Notes: generated by a model not told the origin, from the sequence alone. Shown: positions 35,864-52,308, counted from the first letter of the stretch. The stretch is 64,000 nt of DNA from Colwellia sp. (GCA_013215465.1 JABSOW010000018.1:6174-70173); one strand, 5' to 3'. Translations and numbers: made by a program.

Positions 35864-36189
35864 AATGAACTCCGCTAATTAAATACTTGGTTTAAGCGCG
35901 GCAGTATAACGTAAAACATAAAATAGTCGACTGTTGAATTAAGAAAGCTGAATTCTACTAGCCTTATAGTGAAAGGCTGCTCAAAGTAACGTTTTTGTTA
36001 AGGGCTGTTTTTTCTCCAGTGACGATGTCAGCATAACTCAAACCTAGCTAATGCCTAACGTTAGGATTATATAACTTACGGGTAATTACCTTTAAATGTG
36101 TTATTTAAATGATGATGTTTATAAGTAAATTATTTACAATCATTATCAATTGCAAGTTGGTTTTTAAAGCTATTCTAAAGGTAGAAAAA

Positions 36190-37179
36190 ATGGAAGTTAA
36201 AAATGTAGTGTTAAGCTCTTTGCTAGTATTATTTAGTTACATGGCTGTGGCAAAAGATTCAATATTTGATGAAAATGCAATGCTTGCTTGTGTTGCGGAG
36301 TTAAGTCGTCACGCTGCAGATGATGTTGCTATTGGCGATATTAAAAAACAATGTCATGAAAAAATCAAATCACCACTAACTAAACGCATGATACTAGAAC
36401 AAAGTGCATCGTCGAACCCTTTTGCAATATTGCCACATAAACCTAATTATATACTGCCATTTACCTATTTTGAGGCTAACGAAACCCCTTATGAGAATGT
36501 TCTACAAGGGTATGATTTAGATAATTTGGAGATTAAGTTTCAAGTCTCATTGAAATACATTATCACTGAAAATCTTTTCGTTGAAAATCTCGACCTAGAA
36601 GCCGCTTTTACCACAACTAGCTGGTGGCAAGCATATAACTCAGACCTATCAGCAGTCTTTAGAGAAACAAATTATGAACCTGAACTGATTTTATCTTACC
36701 AGGTACCTTGGTCATTATTTGGTATGACTATTGATTACACTACTTTGTCATTTAATCATCAATCTAACGGCCAAGCAGGCACATTGTCTAAAAGTTGGAA
36801 CCGCATTATTGCTGCCTTTACTGTTGTTGATGACAACCTAATTTGGAATCTCAGAGCTTGGTATAGAATACCTGAAGAAGCTAAGTCTTCCGCGACTGAT
36901 ACTGCTGGAGATGATAACCCTAATATAGAAAATTATATGGGTTACGGTGAATTAGGTTTGCTATGGAAGGTAAACGACAACCATAATATTGACTTTATGC
37001 TTCGTAATAACCTAAAAAGTGATAATAAAGGCGCGGTGAAAATAGGTTGGTCTTTTCCATTATCTACGCACTTACGAGGTTATGTAGAATATTTTAATGG
37101 TTATGGCGAAAGTCTCATTTATTATAATGAACAAACATCTCGTGTGGGCATTGGCGTTAAGCTTACCGACTGGCTCTAG
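36190..37179 (+). CDS. pldA: Outer-membrane phospholipase A
   Basis: Has the active-site HQSNG and the conserved YEPELILSY. I chose the internal start MEVKN (36190), which gives a signal peptide; the longest ORF begins at 36109. Confidence 0.85.
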   Translation: MEVKNVVLSSLLVLFSYMAVAKDSIFDENAMLACVAELSRHAADDVAIGDIKKQCHEKIKSPLTKRMILEQSASSNPFAILPHKPNYILPFTYFEANETPYENVLQGYDLDNLEIKFQVSLKYIITENLFVENLDLEAAFTTTSWWQAYNSDLSAVFRETNYEPELILSYQVPWSLFGMTIDYTTLSFNHQSNGQAGTLSKSWNRIIAAFTVVDDNLIWNLRAWYRIPEEAKSSATDTAGDDNPNIENYMGYGELGLLWKVNDNHNIDFMLRNNLKSDNKGAVKIGWSFPLSTHLRGYVEYFNGYGESLIYYNEQTSRVGIGVKLTDWL

Positions 37180-37348: not shown

Positions 37349-38812
37349 CTACTGGACTATTTTTATCCAATCTCCTGCAGTAGGCTCACCTCTGGGATAT
37401 AAGCCATTAATTAGTCTGAGTTGCTGAGCAGCATAAGAGCCAATTTTCATATGCTTGGCCAGCTCATCAATGCGTGTTCTATCATTGGCTTTAACGTAGT
37501 GAAGTGTTTTCGATTTTTTTCGCTTAGACTGAGTTCTTTCAGGTCTGAAACTACGAATGCTTTTTAAAAAAAGCTGGTCATAATCAATATTTTCTTGCGC
37601 GTTAAGTACACTTGCATCCAGTAAATAAACTCTACTTCCCTGATATAAAACGGCAACTCGGCGTTGATAATTTCCTTGTTCATCATTGATGATACCGGTA
37701 TGACCAACCAAACCATATTGTGAAAAACTTTCTGAGCGTTGCAATATTTTAACATTCATCGCTTTACGAAGAAAATCACCTGGTGCTATGCCTTTAACAT
37801 TACGACTAACCATTAACTTAATCTCCGCAGACTTATCATCTGGCTGACTCACAATAGCTTGGCGAGTTTTATTTACTGTCCATTGAGCAGGAAATAAAAT
37901 GGAAAATCCAAGTTTTTTATGAATATAACGCCACTTCTCTACTGGCTTAGACTTTGGCATGGCATCATAGTTTATACCATACACTAAACCATCAATATGC
38001 TGTCGATAGGCTTCTCTGTTGGCTGAATCATCGATATTACTAGGGAACTCTCCAGCTTTAGCGATAATTTCATTTAGACGAATGTCATTGCGTGGGTGTG
38101 AAGCAAAAAGACCATGATAAGATTTCGTTTTTTTTCCTTCATTTTTCGCACGATATCGGGAAAATTTTTCCTGATCTTTCAATATTCCTATCGTTTCCAC
38201 CATCGCATGAGGATCATAACCACTATTAAACAGATATTCCGCGCCAAACCCGTCAGCTTCTAATTCCATTTCACGCCCATATCCTTTAACTGCTGCCGTA
38301 CTCATTAAATTGGTCACATCACCTAACACCATGCTGCCTGTAGTAAAAATCGACACTATAGATAAGGTACTAGCACCTTTTTTTGCGGTATCTTGGCGAA
38401 CTACATGCCTAGCGGTTACATGAGCAATTTCATGGGCCAATACTGCAGCAAGTTGAGCTTCAGAGTCTAGAAATGCAAGTAAGCCTCTATTGATGTAAAT
38501 ATAGCCACCAGGTAAAGCAAAAGCATTGATATTTGGGGAATCAATAATAGTGAAATGATATTTAATTTCAGGCCTATCACTATTTTTTACAATTTTTTGC
38601 CCTATGCTATCAATGTATGCGGTTAATTTATCATCTTGATAAATTGGCATAGATTTAAGAATTTTTTCATGGAGTTCTTTGCCCATATTAATTTCAGCAC
38701 TTTCAGACATCAATACTAAGTCAGGTGTACCTGTTGCAGGGTTTATTGCACATGATGGTAGCAATGTGATTACGCTGATGAATAAAGCAATCAACAAGAT
38801 TTCTCTTTTCAT
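37349..38812 (-). CDS. M48-family metalloprotease lipoprotein with C-terminal LysM-like domain
   Basis: 487 aa with a lipobox (LLPSC) and an HEIAHV zinc motif. The C-terminal ~45 aa (YVKANDRTRIDELAKHMKI...INGL) is LysM-like. Confidence 0.85.
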   Translation of the reverse strand: MKREILLIALFISVITLLPSCAINPATGTPDLVLMSESAEINMGKELHEKILKSMPIYQDDKLTAYIDSIGQKIVKNSDRPEIKYHFTIIDSPNINAFALPGGYIYINRGLLAFLDSEAQLAAVLAHEIAHVTARHVVRQDTAKKGASTLSIVSIFTTGSMVLGDVTNLMSTAAVKGYGREMELEADGFGAEYLFNSGYDPHAMVETIGILKDQEKFSRYRAKNEGKKTKSYHGLFASHPRNDIRLNEIIAKAGEFPSNIDDSANREAYRQHIDGLVYGINYDAMPKSKPVEKWRYIHKKLGFSILFPAQWTVNKTRQAIVSQPDDKSAEIKLMVSRNVKGIAPGDFLRKAMNVKILQRSESFSQYGLVGHTGIINDEQGNYQRRVAVLYQGSRVYLLDASVLNAQENIDYDQLFLKSIRSFRPERTQSKRKKSKTLHYVKANDRTRIDELAKHMKIGSYAAQQLRLINGLYPRGEPTAGDWIKIVQ

Positions 38813-38873
38813 CTTTTACTCCTCTTTGTATATCAAAAATTCATTTATTGGTTCATACCAAACAAAATAATTA

Positions 38874-39539
38874 TTAATCTGTTTGAAAAAAGCTTTTTAA
38901 CTGATTTCCCATGGCTTTACAGGCATCAGCCTGAACTGGTGCGATGATAGGAATTGGCACCACAATAGCGGGCATATAAGAAGTGCCTTCGGCAACACTG
39001 CTTATTTTGCCAACAAACGTTCTAGTGCGATAATCCCAAATTGATGCTTCGTATTCAGCATTATCATCCCAAGTACCAAAGCCAAAACAGGCAACTCCTG
39101 CGGGTGAAATACCACAACTAATACTGCCACTACCACGAGTTTTTTCCGTATTACCGTCCACCCATACAATATAATGAACATCATAATCGTCGATAATTTC
39201 TGAAACTTTATCGTAAGAAAATAACCTGTGTAGGCCTTTAATATGTGTCGGCGCTGTTCTTGCCTCAAACCATGGATACAAACGGTCAACAAAATCATTT
39301 TCTGGAATTACGTTTATGCCATTTTCTCCTTGGCCAAGCACACTGCCGATACAAGAAATTAATTCTGGTTCAGTCTCATAGTCGCTACCACTTCGCCGAC
39401 CAATAACAACTATCGAATCTTTTGCATTCAATGTGCTAGCTTGATGTTTTACTTCATCAACGATTACAGTGGTACAGCCAGAGATAAGCCACACATACAG
39501 TAAGAAATAAATAAGTTGAGTTGTTTGTTTGAAGTTCAT
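38874..39539 (-). CDS. Hypothetical lipoprotein (last gene of the 12-gene operon)
   Basis: 221 aa with a lipobox LISGC. Starts 11 nt downstream of the preceding gene. Confidence 0.6.
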   Translation of the reverse strand: MNFKQTTQLIYFLLYVWLISGCTTVIVDEVKHQASTLNAKDSIVVIGRRSGSDYETEPELISCIGSVLGQGENGINVIPENDFVDRLYPWFEARTAPTHIKGLHRLFSYDKVSEIIDDYDVHYIVWVDGNTEKTRGSGSISCGISPAGVACFGFGTWDDNAEYEASIWDYRTRTFVGKISSVAEGTSYMPAIVVPIPIIAPVQADACKAMGNQLKSFFQTD

Positions 39540-39550
39540 AAAATTAACTC

Positions 39551-40315
39551 CTATAAATAGCCAAAGTTCAATGAATTATTTGCCAATTGCACAGTAATTA
39601 ATTCCGTTTGAGACTTGTTCTTTTTATAATGTTTTCTTATCTGTGAAATACTATGTTTTTGTTTTAGCCAATTGTTAATCTCAGGTATATGTATGAATCT
39701 CAACGATAGAGCTGCACCTATATCGCGCAAGGCGATAATCATGGCTTCATTAAGCGCTCTCTTTTGAGATTTAAAAAATGCGGTTGGTGTTTTGCCATAT
39801 GCAGTTTGAATCCAATCAGCAATCAACTGCCCCTGATCATCGTAGACTTTCATATTGTATTTGATCCAAACCTCAAACATATTAATGTTAGTTTCATCTG
39901 GAACGTTGTACTGAAATTCTTCCACTTTAGGCTTGAAAAAAAGATCTATGCTAGTGTCCGTTGCCACACTAGGTACGTCAGCAGAAATATTAGTCGCGAG
40001 CTTTTCATTCTTAGTAACAACAACACTTTTAAACATTGCGCTAAGCACGGTATTAAATAATTTTACCTGTGACTTTCCTATACCTATGTCCCACTCATTA
40101 CGTTCTTCATTTTTTTCAATATATCGATAAGAGCGAAATTGCTCTTCATATATGATCCCCACATTCAAAGGTATTATATTAATAACGGGCGTAGGAAAGT
40201 TGCCTTCTACTTCTAAAGTACTTTTACAACTCATTAAACTAAGCAGCAAACTAAGTACTAAACCGAACATCCCTAATCTAGTAACCATAATGAAAATTTT
40301 ATTCAAATAAATCAT
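39551..40315 (-). CDS. Hypothetical lipoprotein
   Basis: 254 aa with a lipobox SLMSC. I recognise no domain. Confidence 0.6.
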   Translation of the reverse strand: MIYLNKIFIMVTRLGMFGLVLSLLLSLMSCKSTLEVEGNFPTPVINIIPLNVGIIYEEQFRSYRYIEKNEERNEWDIGIGKSQVKLFNTVLSAMFKSVVVTKNEKLATNISADVPSVATDTSIDLFFKPKVEEFQYNVPDETNINMFEVWIKYNMKVYDDQGQLIADWIQTAYGKTPTAFFKSQKRALNEAMIIALRDIGAALSLRFIHIPEINNWLKQKHSISQIRKHYKKNKSQTELITVQLANNSLNFGYL

Positions 40316-40336: not shown

Positions 40337-41344
40337 TTAATTTTGGGGTTGATAATGGTTAAGCCCAACAAAAGTGCCACCATTACGGAAAGTAAGTTCT
40401 CTCATCAATGTTGCAAAGCGAATGCCTGTTCTTTGCAAATTCTTTGGTCGAATAAATTGCACAGGAAAGCCCACCGCATGAATACGTACCAAGCGCTGAT
40501 CATGTTCATTTACCTTATTAATTCTTTCAATGGTCGAGAGTACATTGCTTATTGAGCTTCCGGAAAATTCATCTCCCATCACATAAATACTAATTTTTTT
40601 ATCTTGTGAAAAAAAGGTTCGAATAGCTTTTTGAATTCCCTCGACCGGACTACTATTACTAAACGGATTCCAAGTTCTAAGCCTTTTTATAATGGCATCT
40701 CGTCTTGCTTTAGTATCAGGTATCCACTGTCGACGGTAGTTAGTAAACATGTAATTTCCCATATCATTCATCACCTGAATGCCTTTAACTTTAGGGTAAA
40801 TATTTAATGTTGCGACTATTTCTTCTAACATCCTGTCCCAGCCGTAATTAAACATGCTGCCAGAAGTATCAATAATAAAAATTAAGTATTCACTATCAAC
40901 GGGAATTCCGCCAATAAAGTCATTTTTACTGGTATAATTCTCTCCCAATAAACGTTCCATTTCTACGGTAAGCTCTTGTAATGCAATGGCTAATTTACCT
41001 TTTTCTTTGTGGCTAAAAGAAGCCGCTTTTGACATTTGTGCATATTGTGCTTGTATCGTTGCCAAACGCGTTCTTAGAATAGCTACCCGCTTCTTTTCAT
41101 GATCTATTTGTTCATGTTTTGCCGTTAAATCTCTGTTAAAAATAATAGACTCACCTCGAACCTCAAATAAGGTTTGTTGTAAATTTTTTATTTGACCATC
41201 AAGGTTTTGGGTCGATTCTTCTAACACTATCGGCCCGACAGTTTTTGTGATCATTAACAGTAAAATAATCGCACCAAAGCCACAGCAAATAACATCTAAA
41301 AATGCGATGGAAAATTCGTCTGTTCCTCTCTTATTCCTTTTCAT
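40337..41344 (-). CDS. MotB-like single-TM protein with coiled coil and VWA domain (paralog 2)
   Basis: I chose the internal start MKRNKRG (41344; AGGGGA RBS; 8 nt after the upstream stop). Has a TM helix FSIAFLDVICCGFGAIILLLMI with an embedded Asp, ~110 aa of heptad-rich sequence, and a VWA domain with DTSGSM. Confidence 0.7.
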   Translation of the reverse strand: MKRNKRGTDEFSIAFLDVICCGFGAIILLLMITKTVGPIVLEESTQNLDGQIKNLQQTLFEVRGESIIFNRDLTAKHEQIDHEKKRVAILRTRLATIQAQYAQMSKAASFSHKEKGKLAIALQELTVEMERLLGENYTSKNDFIGGIPVDSEYLIFIIDTSGSMFNYGWDRMLEEIVATLNIYPKVKGIQVMNDMGNYMFTNYRRQWIPDTKARRDAIIKRLRTWNPFSNSSPVEGIQKAIRTFFSQDKKISIYVMGDEFSGSSISNVLSTIERINKVNEHDQRLVRIHAVGFPVQFIRPKNLQRTGIRFATLMRELTFRNGGTFVGLNHYQPQN

Positions 41345-41352
41345 TAAATCCC

Positions 41353-42429
41353 CTATGGCCAATCTTTTGATGGGCTCATAAAAGAACCTGCGGTCAATTG
41401 AGCCAATTTCCAAAATAATGAAGCGGCCATAGGATCTCCTTCCATTGGCCATAGTAAAATATTTACTGGGATACCTTGTGGCAAAGCGTCTATTGCTAAG
41501 GCAAATAATTTCTCTCTTTCAACGCCACTGATAATATGGTTATTGCTCGGTGTTATACCTTGGGTTGGCAGCCCATCTGTTATTAAGATAATATTATCTG
41601 GCAGGGGATCTAAGAAATGAATGCTTAGAAAAGCACGCTCTAAACTGGTACCGCCATGAGGTATAATTTCATGTAAATTTTTAATGCTATCGTTTAGTTG
41701 CTGTTGATTATCAACCGACAGCCATTTAATCACAGCGCCTTGTTTGGCTGCTTTGACTTCAGTATTGAAGACAAACAATTGAAATTGACTATTTAAGGAA
41801 AACTTGGCAATTAACCACTCTACCGTTTTGATAGCTCGTTGCCACTTTTTCGACTGTTTTCTTAGCTGTTCGGTCATGTTTCTACGGCGAATAATATTAA
41901 CAATGCGGCTATCGAGCATACTGGCAGAGCCATCAAGTAATATCAAAGTACGGCTACCACCAAGCCTTAGCCCAGTTAAATATTGACGGTCTCCCTGCCC
42001 AGCAAACCTTCGGGCATTATTACCTTTAGCCTGCTCGTCTGCCAATTTTTTCCTTTCAAGCATTAAGGTTTTCAGCTGTTCTTCCATTTTTACAATTTGC
42101 TGATCGTCACTTTCCTCCGATAATTTTGTTACTTTATTATCAATAGCGTCGATTTCATCATTTATTCGTCGCGCCAAACCGCTACTTTCAACTAACTCTT
42201 GGTCGAGTAAAGACAGGGTGTTTTTAATTTTTACTAAGTGTTTTTCGCCGATAATTATTTCTTCATTTAATAAATTAACTTCCGCCTTTAAGTCCAAGTT
42301 TTGCTCTTCAACTTGACTATTCATATCGTGTTTGATAATTAAAAACACTAAAATAACGGCACCAAAACCGCAGGACATTATGTCTAGAAATGAAAGGCTA
42401 AAAGTCGAGAACTTTCTTTTATTGGTCAT
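41353..42429 (-). CDS. MotB-like single-TM protein with coiled coil and VWA domain (paralog 1)
   Basis: 358 aa. TM helix FSLSFLDIMSCGFGAVILVFLII (compare MotB YADFMTAMMAFF), a coiled coil, and a VWA domain with complete MIDAS residues (DGSASM, GGTS, ITDG). Confidence 0.75.
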   Translation of the reverse strand: MTNKRKFSTFSLSFLDIMSCGFGAVILVFLIIKHDMNSQVEEQNLDLKAEVNLLNEEIIIGEKHLVKIKNTLSLLDQELVESSGLARRINDEIDAIDNKVTKLSEESDDQQIVKMEEQLKTLMLERKKLADEQAKGNNARRFAGQGDRQYLTGLRLGGSRTLILLDGSASMLDSRIVNIIRRRNMTEQLRKQSKKWQRAIKTVEWLIAKFSLNSQFQLFVFNTEVKAAKQGAVIKWLSVDNQQQLNDSIKNLHEIIPHGGTSLERAFLSIHFLDPLPDNIILITDGLPTQGITPSNNHIISGVEREKLFALAIDALPQGIPVNILLWPMEGDPMAASLFWKLAQLTAGSFMSPSKDWP

Positions 42430-42434
42430 ATTAA

Positions 42435-43784
42435 TTACATTTCCTCTTCAACTTTGATGAGCACAAAACATGCCTTATTTTTACCGTCAGTTTGCTTGAT
42501 GGTTATTTGATCACCTTGTAAAACAATTTGACCGTCAATTGCCGGTTGATCATTTAAAAATACCTTTTGTGTATTTAAATGTGCATCAGTTAAGTGTGCA
42601 TTGGTTAGGTTTAATTGCCATTTAGCTGCGTTAGGCGCTAACACTATGGATGCAGACTGAGCCACTAGCGGTGCAATTCTTCCTTTTTGCAAACATGACA
42701 AAGACAATGAATGATCGTTAAGGGGGAAAGCTCTACCGTCTAAGAGGATGTGTGATATCTCATATTTATTTGCTAACGAATTGTTTATTGACTGTTTAGC
42801 GGCTTCAGGCTGAGTTTTAGTTTCTTTAACTAACGGTAAACGGGTAACTAAAAATACGCCATTATCATTAGAAAAATTAGCCATATTGGCTGTCACAAGG
42901 GAGTATATACAAGCATCATTTAATAAATGTACCGTGTCGCTAGCAAATAAGTTAGGACATAAATTCGCAAAGCGTGAAGTGATAAATAGTGGAATGTTTT
43001 TATCACTGCGCTTGCTACAGCTTGCGAGTAATTCAGTGAAAAATTCTTCTATTTGCTGATTAATGTCTTTTTGAGCAACATTAATGCTTTTACCATCAAT
43101 GATAAGCTCGAAGTAGTTTTGAGAGTTTTTAATTAATTTCGATAATTGATTATATAACTGCTGCTCGGTTACCGCGCTATAAAATGCATCTAAACGATGT
43201 TCTTTAATTAATTGATGATTCAACCATTGGGCAAGTTGTTCATATAAATCATAAAATCCTTTGTGGGTAAATTGGTCCATATTACCGAGTGAAACATCAT
43301 GGTTAACTAATAATTCAGTTAAACTGCTATGATGCAAACTTATATCTAAAATAGCATATCTTCCAACATTATAACGATGTTCAAATCGTACTAGCGTCTT
43401 ATTTACCAGGCCTAAGACATTAAGATGACAACTTTGTGCAATACCTAATAATAATGACAATTGCTCTTGATTATAGGAACTTGGCACCACAAATATGACA
43501 TCTGAGCAATGATCCACATGACTAACCAAATTTTGTAATTGCATATAAGCTAAATCGGCAAAATTATTAATATAGTTATTATCACAATGTACTTCTTCAT
43601 AGCTTAAACGTTGCCAATAATGACAAAAACTGGCTTGGGGTGAAATACGGGCTTGTAACCAAGCTTCTTCACCAAAAACGACACTATCTTTGGTTATTTG
43701 CGCAAATCCTAGTTCACTATAATGTGAATGTTTTTGCCTTACGGTCAATTGATAATCATTAAGCTCAATGATGGTTAACGGCAT
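42435..43784 (-). CDS. Degenerate Hsp70/actin-fold-like cytoplasmic protein
   Basis: 449 aa with no signal peptide. DVIFVVPSSYNQEQLSLLLGIAQSCHLNVLGLVNKTL resembles the Hsp70 block VITVPAYFND.QR.AT.DAG.IAGL.V.RIINEPTAA. AILDISLHHSSLTEL resembles the phosphate-2 region, but the DxG motifs are absent. The C-terminal ~70 aa may form a beta-sandwich (weakly FHA-like). Confidence 0.5.
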   Translation of the reverse strand: MPLTIIELNDYQLTVRQKHSHYSELGFAQITKDSVVFGEEAWLQARISPQASFCHYWQRLSYEEVHCDNNYINNFADLAYMQLQNLVSHVDHCSDVIFVVPSSYNQEQLSLLLGIAQSCHLNVLGLVNKTLVRFEHRYNVGRYAILDISLHHSSLTELLVNHDVSLGNMDQFTHKGFYDLYEQLAQWLNHQLIKEHRLDAFYSAVTEQQLYNQLSKLIKNSQNYFELIIDGKSINVAQKDINQQIEEFFTELLASCSKRSDKNIPLFITSRFANLCPNLFASDTVHLLNDACIYSLVTANMANFSNDNGVFLVTRLPLVKETKTQPEAAKQSINNSLANKYEISHILLDGRAFPLNDHSLSLSCLQKGRIAPLVAQSASIVLAPNAAKWQLNLTNAHLTDAHLNTQKVFLNDQPAIDGQIVLQGDQITIKQTDGKNKACFVLIKVEEEM

Positions 43785-44596
43785 TAGTCGGCTCCATCAG
43801 TATCTGTTTTTAAATGATTTAATAAATTGGAATCACAATACTCTTGAGTATTTTGTACTAACCTTTCTTGCATTAATTGCAATTGGTGAGTGAAAAACAT
43901 AATAAAAATACTAATAACAAGTGCAATAAAAGTTGAATTAAAGGCAACACCTAAACTATTTGTCACGCCAATGATATTCCCTTCTACCGCTTGATGAGCT
44001 TGGCCTAATGCTTCTCCAATACCACGTACGGTACCAATAAAACCTATTGAAGGAATTGCCCACGAAATATAGCGAATCATAGCCAACTCACTATCAAGTC
44101 TATCGGCTTCCGAGTCACAAATATCTTTAATAGCTGTGGCTACGGCGGCGACACTAGCAGTCGCAGAAAAACGTTGTAAAGCAATCAGTAAGGTTCTTGG
44201 CGCTAACATTTGCTGCTGCTCTACAGAAAGCTTTTGTAACGGTCTACACAAATTTCGAGCATCTTTTGGTAATATGCTCGCCCCTTCTTGTATGTTTAAC
44301 ATGCTATGTGCAAGCATGTTTTTTTCTTGCACCGATAACCTTGCCTTGTATCCCATGATCATTAATACCCAAAACATTAAAATGAAACAGGTTTCTTGCT
44401 CATAATCTTTCAATACCACATAAATAGATCTTTTATTTGTTACGGTACTGCCAGCAATGAACTGAGCTTGTTGTTGCTTAATAATTGCGTCAGCTTCTGG
44501 ACGGATCATGGTAACGTATGTGGCATGCACTAAAATAATTGCGACAAGAAGAGCCATTAGCTGATAAACAAATTCGGTTCCGGTGGTTCGTTTCAT
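43784..44596 (-). CDS. MotA/TolQ/ExbB-family proton-channel protein
   Basis: 270 aa. TM1 is near the N-terminus, and a C-terminal TM pair (ISWAIPSIGFIGTVRGIGEALG and LGVAFNSTFIALVISIFIMFF) is typical of the family. Its stop overlaps the next start (TAATG). Confidence 0.8.
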   Translation of the reverse strand: MKRTTGTEFVYQLMALLVAIILVHATYVTMIRPEADAIIKQQQAQFIAGSTVTNKRSIYVVLKDYEQETCFILMFWVLMIMGYKARLSVQEKNMLAHSMLNIQEGASILPKDARNLCRPLQKLSVEQQQMLAPRTLLIALQRFSATASVAAVATAIKDICDSEADRLDSELAMIRYISWAIPSIGFIGTVRGIGEALGQAHQAVEGNIIGVTNSLGVAFNSTFIALVISIFIMFFTHQLQLMQERLVQNTQEYCDSNLLNHLKTDTDGAD

Positions 44597-44615: not shown

Positions 44616-44954
44616 TTAAATATCAACGGGGAAGGAAACAGCCAAATCTTCAGAAATAGCTTCGGTTGGAATAAATCGGTCATCGTTATTTTTTTTATTC
44701 GGGGGAACTGTTTCTTTTTTAGTAACTTGTTCCTCTGCTAAGTTGACCTTAGCTGGCAGGATGGCTTGTCTTGGGGCAGTTTTTTGCGCTTTAGTAATCA
44801 TCTGTACAGCCTGTAGGTGATTAAGAGTGATGAGCTGCCAAGCGTTGTTACTATCAGTTTTATCTGTTATTAGGTTATTTTTACCGACAACAAGAAATGA
44901 TGTCGTAATAGCCAATAAAGTAATCAAGGCGGTGTTAAAATAAATTATTTTCAT
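44616..44954 (-). CDS. Small signal-anchored or secreted hypothetical protein
   Basis: 112 aa with an N-terminal hydrophobic segment. Lies inside the operon, 19 nt upstream of the MotA-like gene. Confidence 0.55.
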   Translation of the reverse strand: MKIIYFNTALITLLAITTSFLVVGKNNLITDKTDSNNAWQLITLNHLQAVQMITKAQKTAPRQAILPAKVNLAEEQVTKKETVPPNKKNNDDRFIPTEAISEDLAVSFPVDI

Positions 44955-44987: not shown

Positions 44988-47096
44988 TTATTGAGCATAT
45001 CTCGCTATTCTAAACCCTAGATCATTACGTTTGTCATTCCCATAATCACGAAAAGATAAGCGTAATTGAGTTCGACTGCCATAAGCCCAACTAGCCCCGC
45101 GAATAACATGATAATCACCCGTTATCGGGCCCATGGGATCTTTTTCAGCCGCTAGTGATAATCCGGTTTTTATTTGATAAAAATCATGTATCCATTCAGC
45201 CGCATTACCGGATAAATCAAAAATCCCTTTTTTATTGGTTGAAAAGGAGGCTACTGGAGCTGTGGTAATAAAGCTATCATTGTAGGTAGCTTGGATATAA
45301 CCTAATATTGGTGCACCCGCGATATCCGCAATATTTCCAGCATTTTTTTTCGGCGGTAAATTTTTTCCCCACGAATATTTAAGCATCTTCCCATCAGAAT
45401 AACGGGCAATCCATGCCCATTCAGCTTCAGTTGGCAACCGGTAACCATTAGCTTGTTCATTGAAATGGGTGACTTTATCATCGACTATTTGATAGACCTT
45501 AGTTAATTTTTCTTGCTCCGATAACCAATTACAATACTGCGCGGCTTGTAGCCAAGTCATTTTGACTGCTGGTTGTGCTAAACCATTTAAGCTATTGCCC
45601 TTAACATGCCCCGAAGAATGATCTTTGTGAAACTGGCGAAATTCTTTATTGGTGACTTCAGTAAATCCCAAATAGAAAGCCTTACTTAGGTGTATTGTTC
45701 TTTTGACTTCATTGGCACGTCGCCCTTGTTCTCTGCGTGATGCTCCCATAATAAAGGTATCATCGGGTTTAAATAATTTGAGTTTACTACCGGTAGCAGA
45801 AACAATTATTTCTTTGATATTTTCCCATTTAGCTTGTTCTATAGTTTTCAATTGCACTGAAAAAACTTGTTCCATAGAGCTATTTGGTAAAATATTACTC
45901 TGGTAACTTGCATAGCCTTCTTTTTCAATTCTTATTTTTTGTTGTTTAACCGCTATTGTTACACTTTTATTAGCACGTCCCATCAGCCTGTCACCTATAT
46001 ACAACAATGCATCCTCAGGAGAAACATTAAATTTAATGACGCCAACATCCAGCTGTAAAGTGAAGTTTTTTGCAACCTTTGCCCCAGATGGCACCAACAA
46101 GTCGACCGATTGCGACTGGTAGCCATCTTTAAATAATAATAAAGCTTGTTTTATATTAGGTTTTACCTCCGCAGTTATTGGTGTTACCCCCAAATATTGC
46201 TCACCGTAAGTAACACTTATACCCGCAGGCACAGAGGAAATAGAAAGTTTGCCCATTAATTTAAAAAGCTTGGCGAGTGCTAAGCTATGATCTGCACCTG
46301 CGACAACGCTAAGCTCCCTTTCTGTTTGCTGATAACCTGTTTTCTTAAAAAGAAAATTTTGTTCACCTTGTAATATGTCTACATATAAAGGTGTGCTACC
46401 TAAAAGCTTGTCATTATGGTATACCTGAGCGCCTATAGGCTCGGAATTTATACTTACTTTGCCCCAGGCAGGGAGCAAATTAATCGTTAAATTTTGAGTT
46501 TTTTCCATACCACCGATGACAAGATCATTGTGATAAGTAAAATATTTTTCTGATAGTACTGATATCTGGTGCTGACCTGCAGCAAGGTTTTTTATGATAT
46601 TATCTTGCAGTTGTACCGGCTGGTTATCAAGTAAAACCTCAACATCAATATCAGGTTGAATAGCCAACTTTAAATGTCCGGGCAATTTTTTAAAATCAAA
46701 ATTAAGGTGTTGATTCTGTTCTTCCGCCACGATGAATTTTTCATCCAAGGGGTGATATCCCACGGCGTGAGACTTAAACTGGTATTCTCCAGATAACATT
46801 AATAAATGATCGGACATTTTGAAATAAAGCCCCCCTGTTATTATCATTTCATGACTTGTGGGCTCAGTAGTAATAACGACCGATTTAGCACTAACCAAAT
46901 ACCATAAAATCACCACAGCACTGAATAATAAGGTAGCCAATAGATAGAAAACTGGCTGACGTCTTTTCACCACCTTTATTACTTTCCCTGTTGATGGGGA
47001 AAATGCAGCTGCTACTATGGTATTACTGTCTGCATGAATACTTTCTGTAGCAGTAGCTCCATCCGTTTCAACTTTATCATTAAGTAATTTATTCAT
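44988..47096 (-). CDS. Membrane-anchored PEGA-repeat protein with C-terminal FGE-sulfatase (SUMF1-like) domain
   Basis: 702 aa: one TM helix (VFYLLATLLFSAVVILWYLV), at least 5 PEGA-like modules, then FGE-fold motifs (GYRLPTEAEWAWIAR, NAAEW, RGASW, LGFRIAR). Confidence 0.85.
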   Translation of the reverse strand: MNKLLNDKVETDGATATESIHADSNTIVAAAFSPSTGKVIKVVKRRQPVFYLLATLLFSAVVILWYLVSAKSVVITTEPTSHEMIITGGLYFKMSDHLLMLSGEYQFKSHAVGYHPLDEKFIVAEEQNQHLNFDFKKLPGHLKLAIQPDIDVEVLLDNQPVQLQDNIIKNLAAGQHQISVLSEKYFTYHNDLVIGGMEKTQNLTINLLPAWGKVSINSEPIGAQVYHNDKLLGSTPLYVDILQGEQNFLFKKTGYQQTERELSVVAGADHSLALAKLFKLMGKLSISSVPAGISVTYGEQYLGVTPITAEVKPNIKQALLLFKDGYQSQSVDLLVPSGAKVAKNFTLQLDVGVIKFNVSPEDALLYIGDRLMGRANKSVTIAVKQQKIRIEKEGYASYQSNILPNSSMEQVFSVQLKTIEQAKWENIKEIIVSATGSKLKLFKPDDTFIMGASRREQGRRANEVKRTIHLSKAFYLGFTEVTNKEFRQFHKDHSSGHVKGNSLNGLAQPAVKMTWLQAAQYCNWLSEQEKLTKVYQIVDDKVTHFNEQANGYRLPTEAEWAWIARYSDGKMLKYSWGKNLPPKKNAGNIADIAGAPILGYIQATYNDSFITTAPVASFSTNKKGIFDLSGNAAEWIHDFYQIKTGLSLAAEKDPMGPITGDYHVIRGASWAYGSRTQLRLSFRDYGNDKRNDLGFRIARYAQ

Positions 47097-48616
47097 CCGT
47101 TAGTCACTTTTTCATTACATAAAATAATTATTTTTTTTAGCTGATTTGCTGGCATTAAGGTAAAGTCTTGCCTTACATCTCTAAATCCGTTTCTAGAACC
47201 GACTAAAGTATAATCACCAGGCCTTAGTGAAATGCTTTTCGACAAAAAACTACCCAACTCACCGACTCTATGTAAGGTAATACGTGTTTGGTTGTCAGAT
47301 TCAATTCGAAGGGAGACCGGGGTGTTCATTTGTAATAACACCTGCTCAACATTATGTATTTGCTGAGCTAACTTAACACCGGGCTGTTTAATTTGCTGAG
47401 CCTGTTGTTGCGTTAACATGGCTTGTTGGTAAACATTTTTATTCGCTAATCTTTGTGGTTTATTAATAATATAAAGTATTTTTTTCTCGAGATTTTCTCT
47501 CGCCAAAGTACGAATTCCTCCTAACCTGGCATGCATTAATGAGCCGTCTAACGTTAACGCAGCTTGGTAACTACCCTTAGCTAATAACCAATCTTCACTA
47601 CGCTCAAAATCTTGTGCTTTTTTGATGTGATCCGCTATATAAAATTGGGTTCTTTTATTTTGAGTCTGTTCAATTGCATCTTTAGCATCCGCTTTATTAG
47701 GATTAATTTTATCTGCCAAGGTAAAATTCTTTATTGCTGATTTAAATTGCTGAATTTGCAAATGTCTATAACCCGCCGACATGGCTGTGGAATAATCCCT
47801 TGTCATAATAGCTTGATTTACAATCAATAACTGTTCATTTACCCTAGGTTCGTGATTATCTAATGCGTAAGCTTGAGTAAACTTTTCTTTGGCTTTTATC
47901 AATAAAAGCTCATCCATTAACACCTCACCCGCTTTTACTAGTAATAAGACTTGGTCTAGGACAATGGCGCGATCAAATGCACTGGTCGCCATTTCATTAT
48001 TTTCACTAATGTATAATGCTACTTGTAATTTTTCTTTGGCTTTTTGGGCATTATTTGCCGCTAAGGCTTGTATTCCTTGCTCAAGATAATCACTAAAGAC
48101 ACTGTCAGCCTGAGCACTAATATCATTTAATTGCTGCAATGCTCGATTATAAGTAGTAATGGCCTGATCAAATTTTTGAGTTCGATAGAACAAATCACCC
48201 GATTCGGCAGTTTTTATTGCTTGAGCAAATTCATCTGCGTTCCACAGTTCTACATGTTTATCTTCCAGCACTTGCTGCTGTTGTAAAAGTGTTGATAAGA
48301 CTTCTTGTGCCGCTCGCCGATATTTAGTTAATTGCACTTCATGCCAAGGAGACTCATCAATCACTTTTAACGGCTCCTTAGCTAAAATAACACTAGCTTC
48401 GTTAACAACACCGGCCTTATCTACTGACTGAGGTAACCAGAAAATAACAAAATATAAAGTTGCACAAAGGGCGATTAATAAAAGCACGATAAAAACATTA
48501 CCCGAAAACCAATGAAAAATTGCTTTTTGGGGTAAGAATGACTTATCTTCAAAGTTAAATGAAATCGACTCTGATTTTACTGATTCACTTTTATCATTAT
48601 CTTGCTTCATTAACAT
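47093..48616 (-). CDS. Membrane-anchored TPR-repeat protein with C-terminal PEGA-like module
   Basis: 507 aa: a TM helix (VFIVLLLIALCATLYFVIFW), TPR-like helical repeats, and a C-terminal LRPGDYTLVGSRNGFRD. Overlaps the next gene by 4 nt (ATGA). Confidence 0.7.
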   Translation of the reverse strand: MLMKQDNDKSESVKSESISFNFEDKSFLPQKAIFHWFSGNVFIVLLLIALCATLYFVIFWLPQSVDKAGVVNEASVILAKEPLKVIDESPWHEVQLTKYRRAAQEVLSTLLQQQQVLEDKHVELWNADEFAQAIKTAESGDLFYRTQKFDQAITTYNRALQQLNDISAQADSVFSDYLEQGIQALAANNAQKAKEKLQVALYISENNEMATSAFDRAIVLDQVLLLVKAGEVLMDELLLIKAKEKFTQAYALDNHEPRVNEQLLIVNQAIMTRDYSTAMSAGYRHLQIQQFKSAIKNFTLADKINPNKADAKDAIEQTQNKRTQFYIADHIKKAQDFERSEDWLLAKGSYQAALTLDGSLMHARLGGIRTLARENLEKKILYIINKPQRLANKNVYQQAMLTQQQAQQIKQPGVKLAQQIHNVEQVLLQMNTPVSLRIESDNQTRITLHRVGELGSFLSKSISLRPGDYTLVGSRNGFRDVRQDFTLMPANQLKKIIILCNEKVTNG

Positions 48617-48711
48617 CTCCGCTTTAAAAGAGTTCTGTGCAACTGTTCATTACTAAAAGCTTTAACATCCCTAGTCAATTTATAGACTATATATGGGTAT
48701 AAACCATAGAT

Positions 48712-49917
48712 TTAATGACTTTCATTCAAGGTTACACCTTGATTTATCTTATAAATGTTTTGTAATATCTCACGCCACTGTTGATACTGATTGTCAACGG
48801 TACCAGAGAGTGTGACGGTTCGATCTTCAAGTTCAACCACGTTATTTTCAATGCTAGCTTCTAATGAATCACCTAACTCTTGTAATACTTCGATATGTAT
48901 TTGTGATTCAGCATCACGTTCATAGCCATCTTTTAATATATAGGCACCCGCTGTAACGCCAACAATACCTGCGGCTCTTACCGAGCCACTGCCATTTCCA
49001 GCCCCTATTATTCCGGCAATAATAGCGACGGCACCGAATATTTTTTGATTCATTGCTTTACTCTCCATTGTTCGCATTGCAAGCACTTCACCATAACTTT
49101 CACGGCGCCATTGTAAGTATGGTGGCTCCATTTGTTTGGCATATCTGCTGTAATATTCTTGCAAAGTATCAACAAATAGATAATCACGCTCTCGAACCTG
49201 CCGGATTCGGGCCATCATAGGATCACCTTCAGCGGGCAAACGATTAATAGAATAAATGCCCGAATTATCTGTTGTCAGGTGCTCCAAAAACATTTGCGGC
49301 GCAAATGATTGAGCAAATTTTAATTCAGCAACCTGGCGGATTTTTATTAACTCGTTAGCAGATAATTTTTTTCTATAGACATTTAAATCATTAGCAATTA
49401 GGTTATACATATTTTGAAATGGTTCTTTACTCACTTTAAGCTTTTTATCATATGAATACCGGCTAGCTTTTTGATCATATTGTTTGGAAAACCAAATTTT
49501 ACCAAGAGAATCAATAGCTTCTATATTTATGCTCAAAACTTCACCATCAGACTTTACAATATTCCCCTTAATCAAGACATCAACAGAATCATGTTTTCTC
49601 GGCACTACTCGTACCGCTCCCCAGGCAGCACTATTTTGCAAAGACTCCATTAATAAATGAGGAAAATAGTTGGCTTCCGCTATTCTAATTTCGGGAAAGA
49701 CTATTTCATCTTCATCGAGTTCATCTAATCTTTCCAGTCCAGGCTGAAATATTCTAATACCAACGTCTAATAATTCAGATTCGGGGATATCGTCCAATTC
49801 ATGCGTGACAGGCACAACTTTTGTGGTCTTTATATCGACGGAGCTACATGCAGTCATTGTCATAGAAATTACTGTCATCAGTAGCACCAATAAATAAAAT
49901 TTGAATTTCTTCATCAT
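48712..49917 (-). CDS. Hypothetical lipoprotein with C-terminal glycine-zipper segment
   Basis: 401 aa with a lipobox MTACS and the Gly-rich hydrophobic stretch AIIAGIIGAGNGSGSVRAAGIVGVTAGAYIL. Confidence 0.65.
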   Translation of the reverse strand: MMKKFKFYLLVLLMTVISMTMTACSSVDIKTTKVVPVTHELDDIPESELLDVGIRIFQPGLERLDELDEDEIVFPEIRIAEANYFPHLLMESLQNSAAWGAVRVVPRKHDSVDVLIKGNIVKSDGEVLSINIEAIDSLGKIWFSKQYDQKASRYSYDKKLKVSKEPFQNMYNLIANDLNVYRKKLSANELIKIRQVAELKFAQSFAPQMFLEHLTTDNSGIYSINRLPAEGDPMMARIRQVRERDYLFVDTLQEYYSRYAKQMEPPYLQWRRESYGEVLAMRTMESKAMNQKIFGAVAIIAGIIGAGNGSGSVRAAGIVGVTAGAYILKDGYERDAESQIHIEVLQELGDSLEASIENNVVELEDRTVTLSGTVDNQYQQWREILQNIYKINQGVTLNESH

Positions 49918-49938
49918 TGATTTTTACCTTATCTGTAT

Positions 49939-50997
49939 TTAATTATTGGCTTTCTTATATTTACGGTACTCTTGCCATAACTTTTCACGTAACACAGGAT
50001 CTGCTTCATTAAGCGCAGCTTCTCTTATTTGCCGAGCAACAACATCGTCATCATTACCGCTGGAAATATCTGCAGGAGGAGCATAAACCGTTTGTTTATG
50101 CTTAAAATCACCGTCTTTATCATTGGATGATACTGTCGGCATATTTCCTACACCTGAACTTGATGAATTTCCAGGCTTGTTACTTGCTTGCTGATTAGAG
50201 CTTTCCGCCTCGCCATTGAGTACATCATCATATAGGGTGCCGACATCAGCAACTTCAACCTCTTGCTCACTACCTTCTTCATTTCCTCTATTTTGTATAT
50301 ATTCGCGCTCCGTTAAAATCATGCCATCATAATCACCCATGGACCGGTCTAGTTGTTCATCCAACTCTCCCACCCGTTCAGAACGGGTCAGAGCGACCTC
50401 TGCTTGTGATTGACCAGAAGTAGTACTGCCTGCTGATGAATCTGCACTTTGAGATGAATCATTAGCTGAACTATTATTTTGAGTATTTTGCGCTGATTTT
50501 TCACTTTGCTCAGCTTGAGCACTGGATGCACTATTTTCTTCTTCTGAAAAATCTATTTCATCACTAGGGTTGGTTGAGCTTTCGCCACTGATACTTTCTA
50601 AATTTTCATGTTTTTCATCACCATCACCACCATTTTGTTGATTTTTGGCCTCCGTGTACTGCTCTTCTCCTTCTCTCCCCTCTCCTTGTTGGTTTGATGG
50701 CAGACTGCTCCCCTTATCACTTGATTTACTTGTAGACTGTTGACTTGAAGATTGTCGGTTTTTGGCGGTTTTTCCTGATGTTGATGATGCTTTTGACCTA
50801 TCTTTTCGGGCTGATTGACTAGCACTACTTGGTTGAGAACGACTAGAAGAACTGCTAGCGGTACTTGCGCTCGCAGGTTTTGAACTTTTAGCCGCCGGAG
50901 GCTGTTGAGGTGGTTGCGGACTTTGCTGAGTTGTTTTACAACCAACTACACATATTGCTAACGCCGTAATCATCACTAAGATATATTTTGTATTCAT
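49939..50997 (-). CDS. Low-complexity Ser/Gln/Glu-rich lipoprotein
   Basis: I chose the start MNTKYIL (50997). Has a lipobox VVGCK, about 250 aa of S/Q/E/N-rich disordered sequence, and a short conserved-looking helical C-terminus. Confidence 0.65.
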   Translation of the reverse strand: MNTKYILVMITALAICVVGCKTTQQSPQPPQQPPAAKSSKPASASTASSSSSRSQPSSASQSARKDRSKASSTSGKTAKNRQSSSQQSTSKSSDKGSSLPSNQQGEGREGEEQYTEAKNQQNGGDGDEKHENLESISGESSTNPSDEIDFSEEENSASSAQAEQSEKSAQNTQNNSSANDSSQSADSSAGSTTSGQSQAEVALTRSERVGELDEQLDRSMGDYDGMILTEREYIQNRGNEEGSEQEVEVADVGTLYDDVLNGEAESSNQQASNKPGNSSSSGVGNMPTVSSNDKDGDFKHKQTVYAPPADISSGNDDDVVARQIREAALNEADPVLREKLWQEYRKYKKANN

Positions 50998-51021
50998 AAT
51001 TCCCCCCAAATGGCTTTTTAT

Positions 51022-52308
51022 TTATGGAAAAACATGGAGCTGAAATTGAGCGGTAAACATCAGACTGCCATCGGCAATGCGCGGTCTGAACCTAGCTGAT
51101 CGTAAAGATTTTAAAACTTTTGAACGCATTCCCATATTATTTTTTGGATAAGAACTTACTATTTTAAGATTTTGTACTTTGCCATAACGGGTAATGTCCA
51201 TAGATGCATGTACATATTTCACATCTTCTAAGTTACTATCATTTGGTAAGTTAGTAGTAGAATTATTATAGATATTTGGAAGATCGGGTAATACCACAGG
51301 AACATTAAATAACTCATTAAATTTATTGTTATTTTCATTATGCGTATTAGCATATGCATACGCTTGTTTATAATGACTGCTGGCTAGCTGCCTTTTACCG
51401 TACATTAAATACCAGTCAGCTAATTTAAGCATTGCCTTAGAAACATGCATATGATCTATCGGCTGTTGCTCGTTATGTACAGCTAACTCCCGTTGAATAA
51501 GCTCTACCCCAGTAGAAAAACTTTTACGTTTCATAAAACTTATTTTTCTACCAGATATACTATGCTCTTTGGCATAGCTGCCGTCTGAATTAATAGTGAC
51601 CGATTCAGCTAAAATGGTAGTTGCAACAAGGTAATTTGCCAATATCAAGCCATTTAAAGCAGGAATAACTCGAATATCAGTTTCACTGTAAGTATTACTC
51701 ATAAGTTCCAAAGCATTCTGGTAAGACCCATAAGCATTAATTAAGTCTCTTAACGGTGCAGCTGATAGCTGAACTGAATAGGACTTCAAATACCAATGCG
51801 CCTTTTCCATCTGAATTTCGAGCATCTTAATATTATCAGCAGCAAAATTTTTACTGTATAACCAACTCAAATGTGAATATCTTTTGTCCACCTTTGGCCA
51901 TTGTTTTTTTTCTTTCAAACTGGTGATTAGTTTTCGAATAATGGGAATTTGTGTCGTTGAGTACAAACCGTCATTAATACGATTTAAATGTGCTGAGCGC
52001 TTAAGAAATTTGATCGCTTCGTCATGTCGACCGTATTCTTGATAGATGCTGCCGAGATTCATTAATTCTTGTGTTAATCGGCTACCATAGGCGCCATCTT
52101 GACTTTCGATTTCTTCAATAGCAACTTGATATTTCTCGACAAAGTTAGCTAGTGTCTGGTCGTCAAATTTAGCAGATTTACTTGCTGAAGAGTTAGCAGT
52201 CGATAAAGATGTTGTTACCTTAGTTACCGCTACAGAAGTAAACGAAAAGCTATATTTAGTTACTAAAATTAATAAGGTAAATAATAAAACTTTTAAAAAT
52301 AATCTCAT
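51022..52308 (-). CDS. Secreted TPR-like protein with TonB_C-like C-terminal domain (first gene of operon)
   Basis: 428 aa with a signal peptide and TPR-like repeats (NLGSIYQEYGRHDEAIKFLKRS). The C-terminal ~80 aa (GKVQNLKIVSSYP...LKSLRSARFRPRIADG) resembles the TonB C-terminal fold. Confidence 0.6.
   Translation of the reverse strand: MRLFLKVLLFTLLILVTKYSFSFTSVAVTKVTTSLSTANSSASKSAKFDDQTLANFVEKYQVAIEEIESQDGAYGSRLTQELMNLGSIYQEYGRHDEAIKFLKRSAHLNRINDGLYSTTQIPIIRKLITSLKEKKQWPKVDKRYSHLSWLYSKNFAADNIKMLEIQMEKAHWYLKSYSVQLSAAPLRDLINAYGSYQNALELMSNTYSETDIRVIPALNGLILANYLVATTILAESVTINSDGSYAKEHSISGRKISFMKRKSFSTGVELIQRELAVHNEQQPIDHMHVSKAMLKLADWYLMYGKRQLASSHYKQAYAYANTHNENNNKFNELFNVPVVLPDLPNIYNNSTTNLPNDSNLEDVKYVHASMDITRYGKVQNLKIVSSYPKNNMGMRSKVLKSLRSARFRPRIADGSLMFTAQFQLHVFP

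Follow-up and report, generated by a model that had tools for sequence, protein, structure and literature searches.

A conserved operon of Colwellia with paired transmembrane VWA proteins and a MotA-like subunit: a candidate 5:2 motor of the cell envelope

Background

Can a VWA domain be the working end of a proton-driven membrane motor? The question is raised by a 64,000-nucleotide stretch of DNA from a metagenome-assembled genome of Colwellia sp. (GCA_013215465.1, JABSOW010000018.1:6174-70173), referred to here as the window. Two neighbouring genes on its minus strand, named VWA1 and VWA2 here, encode proteins which begin with a short basic tail and an Asp-containing transmembrane (TM) helix, continue as a predicted coiled coil and end in a predicted VWA domain. 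They share an operon with a gene for a channel subunit of the MotA/ExbB/TolQ family. An earlier note, made from the sequence by itself, likened the helices to those of MotB and ExbD.

Experimental work has characterised five kinds of MotA/ExbB-type 5:2 motor: flagellar stators, Ton, Tol, gliding/type IX secretion (T9SS) and Zorya. In each of them the output depends on the cargo domain of the B subunit.

The idea of a motor with VWA-bearing B subunits is already published. The TPH-vWA family was predicted computationally in 2025 (Mol Biol Evol 2025;42(6):msaf138, PMC12204202), so the earlier note's remark that it knew of no VWA output module for a B subunit is out of date. The main text of that paper describes TM-tethered vWA proteins which co-occur very tightly with tolQ homologues, with no tolR or exbD genes. 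They are found mostly as heterologous pairs, are without the SHLS motif of TolA and TonB, and have a "trans-pore helix" bearing a conserved proton-binding Asp. In AlphaFold3 (AF3) models, the paired Asp residues are placed inside the threonine ring of a TolQ-like pentamer. The seed sequence is from Idiomarina, the reported range is Proteobacteria and Verrucomicrobia, and the main text gives no known phenotype (PMC12204202). A full-text literature search found no second paper describing the TPH-vWA architecture. The additions made here are a cytoplasmic partner and an extended conserved module.

The VWA pair

VWA1 (41353..42429, minus strand; NCBI NQY88716.1) has 358 amino acids (aa). VWA2 (40337..41344, minus strand; NCBI NQY88715.1) has 335 aa and an architecture like that of VWA1. 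BLASTP aligns their N-terminal 173 aa with 21% identity (E=4e-10); on this evidence the two are distant paralogs, and the tandem arrangement proposed for them stands. The longest open reading frame (ORF) of VWA2 starts at 41452, inside VWA1, with an overlap of 100 nt. Both the orthologue alignment and the NCBI model NQY88715.1 put the conserved start at the ATG at 41344, 8 nt past the VWA1 stop. The 108-nt upstream extension (41345-41452, minus strand) is not conserved among orthologues. Judged by alignment, this extension into VWA1 is an ORF-calling artefact, and 41344 is taken as the true start.

Loci were compared in 80 genomes of Alteromonadales and Cellvibrionales, retrieved by similarity to VWA1. 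Orthologues at these loci are 49-72% identical for VWA1 and 50-81% identical for VWA2. VWA2 is consistently the more conserved of the two; identity to Thalassomonas is 81% for VWA2 vs 72% for VWA1.

The TM helix of VWA1 (about residues 9-32; 42334..42405, minus strand) has the sequence F-S-L-S-F-L-D-I-M-S-C-G-F-G-A-V-I-L, which includes a C-G-F-G-A motif. The helix of VWA2 (about residues 10-33; 41246..41317, minus strand) has the sequence F-S-I-A-F-L-D-V-I-C-C-G-F-G-A-I-I-L. The motif quoted in the earlier note is exact in both proteins, and the two share the pattern [LI]-[SA]-F-L-D-[IV]-x-x-C-G-F-G. The Asp is invariant: Asp16 of VWA1 (42382-42384) is kept in 81/81 orthologues and Asp17 of VWA2 (41294-41296) in 79/79. 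It persists in the family down to 30% identity. Of 117 full-length representatives with 30-50% identity, 94 match [FWL][LIMV]D...CG[FLM]G; the remaining 23 are mostly N-truncated gene calls or variants which still have F-L-D. There is no His in either helix, and the SHLS-type motif of TolA and TonB, as given in PMC12204202, is absent.

Mean pairwise identity is 0.88 (VWA1) and 0.83 (VWA2) in the TM helix; elsewhere it is 0.43-0.51 in the coiled coil and 0.58-0.70 in the VWA domain. A short linker preceding the VWA domain (0.86-0.87) is conserved equally to the helix. By this measure the helix, equalled by the linker, is the most conserved part of both proteins, which would not be expected of a passive anchor.

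The N-terminal tails are basic, in agreement with the earlier description. Across about 80 orthologues of each protein, mean K+R is 3.7-3.9 on the N-terminal side of the helix vs 1.2-1.3 in the 15 residues that follow it, where acidic residues prevail. By the positive-inside rule, this asymmetry indicates an N-in/C-out orientation, with everything beyond the helix predicted to be periplasmic.

The coiled-coil stalk of VWA1 (about residues 33-143; 42001..42333, minus strand) is predicted to be periplasmic and is delimited by structure prediction with AlphaFold2 (AF2) and by heptad score. The AF2 monomer of VWA1 (92 sequences) has one long helix at residues 21-143, with a break at 106-108. The heptad a/d pattern is above that of shuffled sequences (z=4.3, for VWA1, and 5.5), and each protein has a helical heptad-patterned stretch of about 105 residues. 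These checks bear out the heptad-like region of ~90-110 aa which had been noticed after the helix.

Structure was predicted for the VWA domain of VWA1; that of VWA2 is assigned by sequence. The VWA1 domain lies at about residues 159-350 (41380..41955, minus strand). In the AF2 model, residues 160-350 form a compact domain with a block-mean confidence (pLDDT) of ~62-94, mostly 77-94. Foldseek matches this model to solved VWA domains with E of ~2e-7 to 1e-5; the matches include BatB (3ibs), TEM8/ANTXR, CLCA1 and the LapA vWFA domain. The Pfam scores are below the curated thresholds, at 25.1 vs 27 bits for VWA1 (VWA_2) and 17.3 vs 23.8 for VWA2 (VWA), so the fold assignment rests on structure comparison and on the motif of the metal ion-dependent adhesion site (MIDAS). 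The MIDAS residues of VWA1 are D166, S168, S170 and D285, each in 81/81 orthologues, and T261, in 80/81. The VWA2 domain (about residues 153-330; 40355..40888, minus strand) has a putative MIDAS made up of D159-x-S161-x-S163, S231/S232 and D258; D159, S161, S163, S231 and D258 are kept in 79/79 orthologues. According to the model of VWA1 and the invariant residues of both, each protein carries a VWA domain with a complete MIDAS site of the DxSxS...T...D type, as had been proposed. TM Asp to MIDAS Asp spacing hardly departs from 142 in VWA2, and ranges from 149 to 154 in VWA1.

The channel subunit and the linked cytoplasmic protein

The pair belongs to a 13-gene minus-strand operon which runs from 52308 to 37349, with intergenic gaps of -4 to 95 nt. 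Gene order is kept across the 80 genomes, which represent two orders of Gammaproteobacteria. Upstream of the pair is the gene for a 270-aa channel subunit of the MotA/ExbB/TolQ family (43784..44596, minus strand), the presumed pentameric A subunit. It matches Pfam PF01618 (MotA_ExbB) with 50 bits (E=3e-13; cut-off 22.9). Two segments are invariant, I-P-S-I-G-F-I-G-T-V-R-G-I-G and G-V-A-F-N-S-T-F-I-A-L. In an hhalign comparison with E. coli TolQ (E=7.5e-5), these fall on G-L-F-G-T-V-W-G-I and A-L-I-A-T-A-I-G-L, with T189 on T145 and T222 on T178; T145 and T178 are the pore-lining threonines of TolQ. The MotA-like profile had no hit among PDB sequences at E<=0.1; the Pfam and TolQ matches are clear. 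Hydropathy gives four hydrophobic segments, which suggests a topology like that of MotA rather than that of ExbB.

No gene for ExbD, TolR or MotB was found in the operon by Pfam and other profile scans, homology search or hhalign. The only ExbD homologues in 1.6 Mb of related loci come from three loci of Microbulbifer, where they lie outside the operon at a distance of ~7-9 kb. VWA1 and VWA2 are each present at all 80 loci, the MotA-like gene at 76 and the 449-aa gene described next at 73. The earlier picture of two B subunits beside one A subunit holds in that they share the operon and the pair is present at 80/80 loci; the A gene is not directly adjacent, as the 449-aa gene lies between.

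This gene (42435..43784, minus strand) encodes a predicted cytoplasmic protein and is placed between the MotA-like gene and VWA1; in the window its stop and start codons overlap or nearly abut those of its neighbours. The product is a "hypothetical protein" with no Pfam match. In the AF2 model (84 sequences, pLDDT 87), residues 1-320 have the fold of an Hsp70 nucleotide-binding domain (NBD), followed by a C-terminal beta-sandwich. Foldseek matches the model to the NBDs of DnaK, BiP and Hsp70 with E of 2e-16 to 6e-14. The family profile matches FHA domains of EssC, KIF13B and Ki-67 (E 0.002-0.02), and some UniRef members of the family are named "FHA domain-containing protein". The phosphate-2 loop of Hsp70, DLGGGT, is replaced by L-D-[IL]-x-L-H-Q, and ATPase activity is therefore doubtful. 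The protein has 359 detectable homologues vs >6,700 for VWA1, and its position is kept in distant loci. It is part of the core of the module.

Five distant loci with VWA1 30-36% identical to that of the window had enough flanking sequence for comparison. Three of them (L083, L085 and L086; VWA1 30-32% identical) have the order MotA, one further gene, VWA, VWA. In L085 the further gene encodes a 495-aa protein whose homology to the 449-aa protein is full-length (hhalign E=1e-19), and genes for TPR, M48 and TonB_C proteins are nearby. In L086 it encodes 383 aa, homologous to the NBD-like part only (E=2e-16). L083 has the order lipoprotein, TPR, PEGA/FGE, three genes, MotA, 499-aa protein, VWA, VWA; the 499-aa protein has no detectable homology to the 449-aa protein. 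In L082 a homologue of the 449-aa protein precedes the VWA pair, and the 10 kb on each side contain no MotA-family gene; in L081 the VWA pair stands alone, the 7.7 kb upstream being free of MotA genes. The heterologous tandem pair is present at 80/80 close loci and in the distant loci L081-L086. In L082 (12167-21068, minus strand) the pair is followed by an opposite-strand gene called as 14,937 aa; this giant protein may be an adhesin.

A proposed motor

The reading favoured here, with moderate confidence, is that VWA1 and VWA2 form a B-type heterodimer, the "axle", within a pentamer of the MotA/ExbB/TolQ-like protein, and that the whole works as a proton-driven 5:2 motor. The short basic N-terminal tails would remain cytoplasmic, and the two TM helices would lie side by side in the pentamer pore. 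Asp16 of VWA1 and Asp17 of VWA2 would bind and release protons beside the channel threonines T189 and T222. In the periplasm the chains would form a heterodimeric coiled coil; ~105-110 residues at 0.15 nm would give ~15-16 nm, a length which, with the 4-5 nm of a VWA head added, could bring it close to the outer membrane. The VWA heads, with MIDAS intact, would hold on to a partner close to the outer membrane by one of its acidic residues. Candidate partners are the predicted outer-membrane lipoproteins of the operon, its PEGA/FGE-sulfatase protein and its TPR proteins. Ion flow would lead to rotation of, or tension on, the VWA-bound partner. GltG docks on AglR through its FHA domain (PMC11761067); the Hsp70-NBD-like/FHA-like protein may, by analogy, dock on the cytoplasmic face of the motor as a regulator or scaffold.

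Several results weigh against this reading, and the first concerns the ancestry of the helix. Pfam ExbD (PF02472) and MotB_plug have no match to the N-terminal segments or to 40 family members at E<=10. Searches of PDB sequences with the single sequence and with the family profile return no B subunit; the sole hit, NDUFB4, was rejected as a chance C-G-F-G resemblance. Against an ExbD/TolR profile built for the purpose (114 sequences of low diversity, Neff 2.2), the VWA-family profile has an hhalign P of 0.028, with a probability of 1.8% over 6 columns. HMMER ranks TolR 111, ExbD 178 and PomB 380 among 3,280 background ORFs, none of them significant.

The profile comparison has little to say either way. 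Nine control segments from other operon proteins, hydrophobic stretches of TM or signal type, have P of 0.037-0.74. The accepted B subunits MotB of E. coli (P=0.046) and PomB of Vibrio (P=0.033) score no better against the same profile, so the test is without power to decide the relationship. Of the E. coli ExbD, TolR, TolQ and MotB and Vibrio PomB sequences used here, those of ExbD and TolR found support in the profile search, at 99% identity or at family level. The register is the expected one: S-F-L-D-I-M falls on P-F-I-D-V-M, and Asp16 on D25 of ExbD (D23 of TolR). Compared singly with ExbD, TolR, MotB and PomB, the VWA-family helix gives P of 0.01, 0.01, 0.059 and 0.0032, in each case with the essential Asp on Asp16. 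The sequence comparisons neither establish nor exclude that the helix shares an ancestor with known B subunits. Locally it looks more like ExbD and TolR (P-F-I-D-V-M, P-L-L-D-V-L) than like the MotB segment chosen for comparison in the earlier note; that segment belongs to the TM helix and not to the plug. The earlier interpretation is partly supported, by context and conservation and not by the TM sequence test, the profile-profile comparison which the earlier note had itself proposed as a refuting check.

The other points on this side concern the assembly. AF2 confidence is low for the TM helix and stalk of VWA1; such low confidence is expected of a monomer model. The TM Asp to MIDAS Asp spacing varies too little to be informative and has no correlation between VWA1 and VWA2, so heterodimerisation is without direct support. 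A MotA-family gene is missing within 7-10 kb in two of the five distant loci (L081 and L082); the linkage between VWA pair and motor gene is therefore strong, but not obligatory. The literature search found no experiment on any family member. Membership of the TPH-vWA family fits point by point, and is a match by description and not by sequence.

The points of that match are as follows. Like the proteins of the main text of PMC12204202, those of the window have an N-terminal helix with a conserved Asp and no SHLS motif or His, a C-terminal vWA domain, and a heterologous partner. A tolQ-like gene is linked and tolR, exbD and motB are absent, both in the window and at 76/80 close loci, although at only 3/5 distant ones. 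Idiomarina, the source of the seed, and Colwellia are both genera of Alteromonadales. The 449-aa Hsp70-NBD/FHA-like gene, the PEGA/FGE-sulfatase protein, the M48 peptidase and the 13-gene operon go beyond the main text of the published account. Unlike in that account, two distant loci here have no adjacent motor gene; L081 and L082 thus qualify the published claim of extremely tight co-occurrence with tolQ (PMC12204202).

Alternative explanations

The pair might instead be membrane-anchored periplasmic scaffolds or adhesins like BatA and BatB, with TM helices outside the channel. The MotA-like protein would then have another partner, or the VWA proteins would bind its periphery as TolA and TonB do. 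The likeness to BatA and BatB is a real one: these too are paired TM-anchored VWA proteins encoded beside TPR proteins, as in bat operons, and BatB (3ibs) ranks high among the solved structures which the VWA domain matches. The lack of significant TM similarity to B subunits fits such an anchor, as do the two distant loci which have the pair and no nearby MotA gene. What a passive anchor leaves unexplained is a TM helix more conserved than the catalytic-type domain which it carries, and an invariant buried Asp combined with a C-G-F-G packing motif. The operon also differs from bat operons in having no MoxR ATPase or DUF58 gene, and the proteins differ from BatA and BatB in the TM Asp, the long coiled coil and the linkage to the MotA family. 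Peripheral binding of the TolA/TonB kind is at odds with a helix that is without the His-containing SHLS-type motif, and no alternative B subunit which could occupy the channel is encoded in the operon. This explanation, the main rival, is considered unlikely.

Less likely still is a signalling or assembly module, in which a periplasmic VWA sensor is joined to a cytoplasmic FHA scaffold binding phospho-threonine, with no torque and only a loose association with the MotA-like protein. It would account for the Hsp70-like/FHA-like gene, which is linked to the pair in L082 despite the lack of a nearby MotA gene and whose codons overlap or nearly abut those of its neighbours in the window. The same holds for the place found for P0424, where the gene just ahead of the pair encodes a Pfam FHA protein. 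Such a module leaves unexplained the invariant Asp buried in the membrane, and the linkage to MotA at 76/80 close and 3/5 distant loci. The FHA-like part is missing in L086, where the rest of the module is kept, and neither a kinase nor a phosphatase is encoded in the operon.

A Zorya-like anti-phage defence system built on the MotA-like channel is very improbable and was rejected, because the sole match is a weak one of the MotA-like protein to PADLOC ZorA (E=4.5e-4, 17 bits, on the shared MotA domain only) with no other among the ten operon proteins scanned, no ZorA tail, ZorB peptidoglycan-binding domain, ZorC/ZorD genes or ZorE features were found, G+C equals that of the surroundings, the family has no match in 72,556 plasmids, and the 13-gene order is kept across two orders of Gammaproteobacteria, unlike that of mobile defence islands.

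Comparison with known motors

Among characterised motors, ExbB-ExbD and TolQ-TolR share several features with the proposed 5:2 motor. The A subunit falls in Pfam MotA_ExbB and keeps both pore threonines. As in ExbD and TolR, the Asp is a few residues from the cytoplasmic end of the helix, in a motif of the form [SP]-[FL]-[LI]-D-[VI]-[ML], and the operon context is envelope-spanning, with TPR and TonB_C-like proteins. It differs in having a coiled coil and VWA domain in place of the small alpha/beta periplasmic domain (and no Pfam ExbD match), in two different B chains, and in the absence of a separate TonB/TolA transducer with an SHLS helix. With its four hydrophobic segments, the A subunit resembles MotA and not the three-segment ExbB and TolQ.

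MotAB and PomAB resemble it in the register of the TM Asp (PomB P=0.003, MotB P=0.06) and in an A subunit which probably has four TM segments. Here, by contrast, MotB_plug and the OmpA-like peptidoglycan-binding domain are absent, and there are no flagellar genes nearby.

The Agl-Glt machine of Myxococcus also has one A subunit (AglR) with two different B subunits (AglQ and AglS). It includes TPR proteins, TonB_C-like domains, the docking of GltG on the motor through an FHA domain, and a VWA adhesin, CglB (PMC11761067). AglQ and AglS differ from the VWA pair in being short and TolR-like, and in the Glt system the VWA domain belongs to an outer-membrane lipoprotein of its own. The locus yielded no Glt homologues.

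In GldL-GldM and PorL-PorM, the B-type subunit is itself a long stalk spanning the periplasm, and a protein of FGE-sulfatase fold (GldK/PorK) is encoded in the gene cluster, as here. GldL differs in not belonging to Pfam MotA_ExbB, and GldM in having neither a VWA domain nor a coiled coil of the present type. The FGE protein of the window is TM-anchored with PEGA repeats, and its match to GldK is partial (94.8 vs a cut-off of 350 bits); beyond it, no equivalogs of GldK, GldL, GldM or GldN were found in the operon.

Other genes of the operon

No published name was found for the 13-gene operon. In order, it encodes a TPR protein weakly resembling TonB_C (428 aa), a low-complexity lipoprotein (356 aa), a lipoprotein weakly resembling BON (401 aa), a TM+TPR protein (507 aa), the PEGA/FGE protein (702 aa), a 112-aa protein, the MotA-like subunit (270 aa), the 449-aa protein, VWA1, VWA2, two lipoproteins (254 and 221 aa) and an M48 lipoprotein (487 aa). 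The two lipoproteins which follow VWA2 are each present at 75 of the 80 loci, the PEGA/FGE gene at 72 and the M48 gene at 66; the other named genes are present at 62-68, and the short, divergent 112-aa gene is detected by BLAST at 22. Genes missing from loci are mostly at contig ends. All five lipoproteins of the operon have lipoboxes without Asp at +2 and are predicted to be in the outer membrane.

The upstream four genes (47093..52308, minus strand) encode a TPR protein, two lipoproteins and a TM+TPR protein, and their order is conserved at 62-68 of the 80 loci. The first (51022-52308, minus strand) is a secreted TPR protein in which the last ~60 residues resemble TonB_C, below the cut-off (17.2 vs 24.6 bits); a separate TonB_C protein is encoded near the module in the distant locus L085. 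The lipoprotein at 49939-51009 (minus strand) has a first stretch of ~250 residues of almost entirely S/Q/N/E/G low complexity and a conserved C-terminal segment of ~60 aa; its listed ORF starts with TTG.

The PEGA/FGE-sulfatase protein (44988..47096, minus strand; 702 aa) has a predicted inner-membrane TM anchor and three PEGA repeats; Pfam matches are FGE-sulfatase (E=1.9e-36) and PEGA (E=2.8e-29). Between its gene and the MotA-like gene lies the gene for the small, secreted or anchored protein of 112 aa (44616..44954, minus strand). This protein has no family match, no TM Asp and no similarity to ExbD (hhalign P=0.17).

The downstream three genes (37349..40315, minus strand) encode two predicted lipoproteins and the M48 metallopeptidase lipoprotein (Peptidase_M48, E=5e-35). 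The 221-aa lipoprotein (38874-39539, minus strand) has a lipobox C22 and invariant C63, C142, C151 and C207; the four invariant cysteines suggest periplasmic disulfides. Profiles of both downstream lipoproteins found nothing among PDB sequences. A terminator-like hairpin with a 12-bp stem (37316-37285, minus strand) lies between the end of the operon and a convergent gene for outer-membrane phospholipase A1 (36109-37179, plus strand; Pfam PLA1, E=4e-94). A promoter scan gave a number of matches equal to the chance expectation.

Family size and distribution

More than 6,700 relatives are present in 5.8 billion proteins, all annotated solely as "VWA domain-containing protein". An exhaustive search of representatives at 50% identity gives 1,304 clusters at E<=1e-3 and 262 at E<=1e-30. 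No relative was found in the 72,556 plasmids, and the operon has the G+C of its surroundings. The family is chromosomal and conserved in abundant marine heterotrophs, including Colwellia, Pseudoalteromonas, Microbulbifer and Halieaceae.

Conclusions

It is suggested, tentatively, that the four-gene core and its operon make up an uncharacterised trans-envelope machine of marine Gammaproteobacteria and other phyla, possibly a proton-driven rotary motor which acts on outer-membrane components, by pushing or pulling, through the metal contacts of VWA domains and is controlled from the cytoplasm by a protein of actin/Hsp70 fold. The residues for mutation are defined: Asp16, Asp17 and the MIDAS serines. 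The co-conserved envelope proteins are candidate ligands. If this wider reading is true, a further functional class of 5:2 motor would join those of flagella, Ton, Tol, gliding/T9SS and Zorya. A B subunit with a metal-dependent VWA adhesion domain at the tip of a ~15-nm stalk would, for its part, bring proton-motive force to the outer envelope by another route than theirs.

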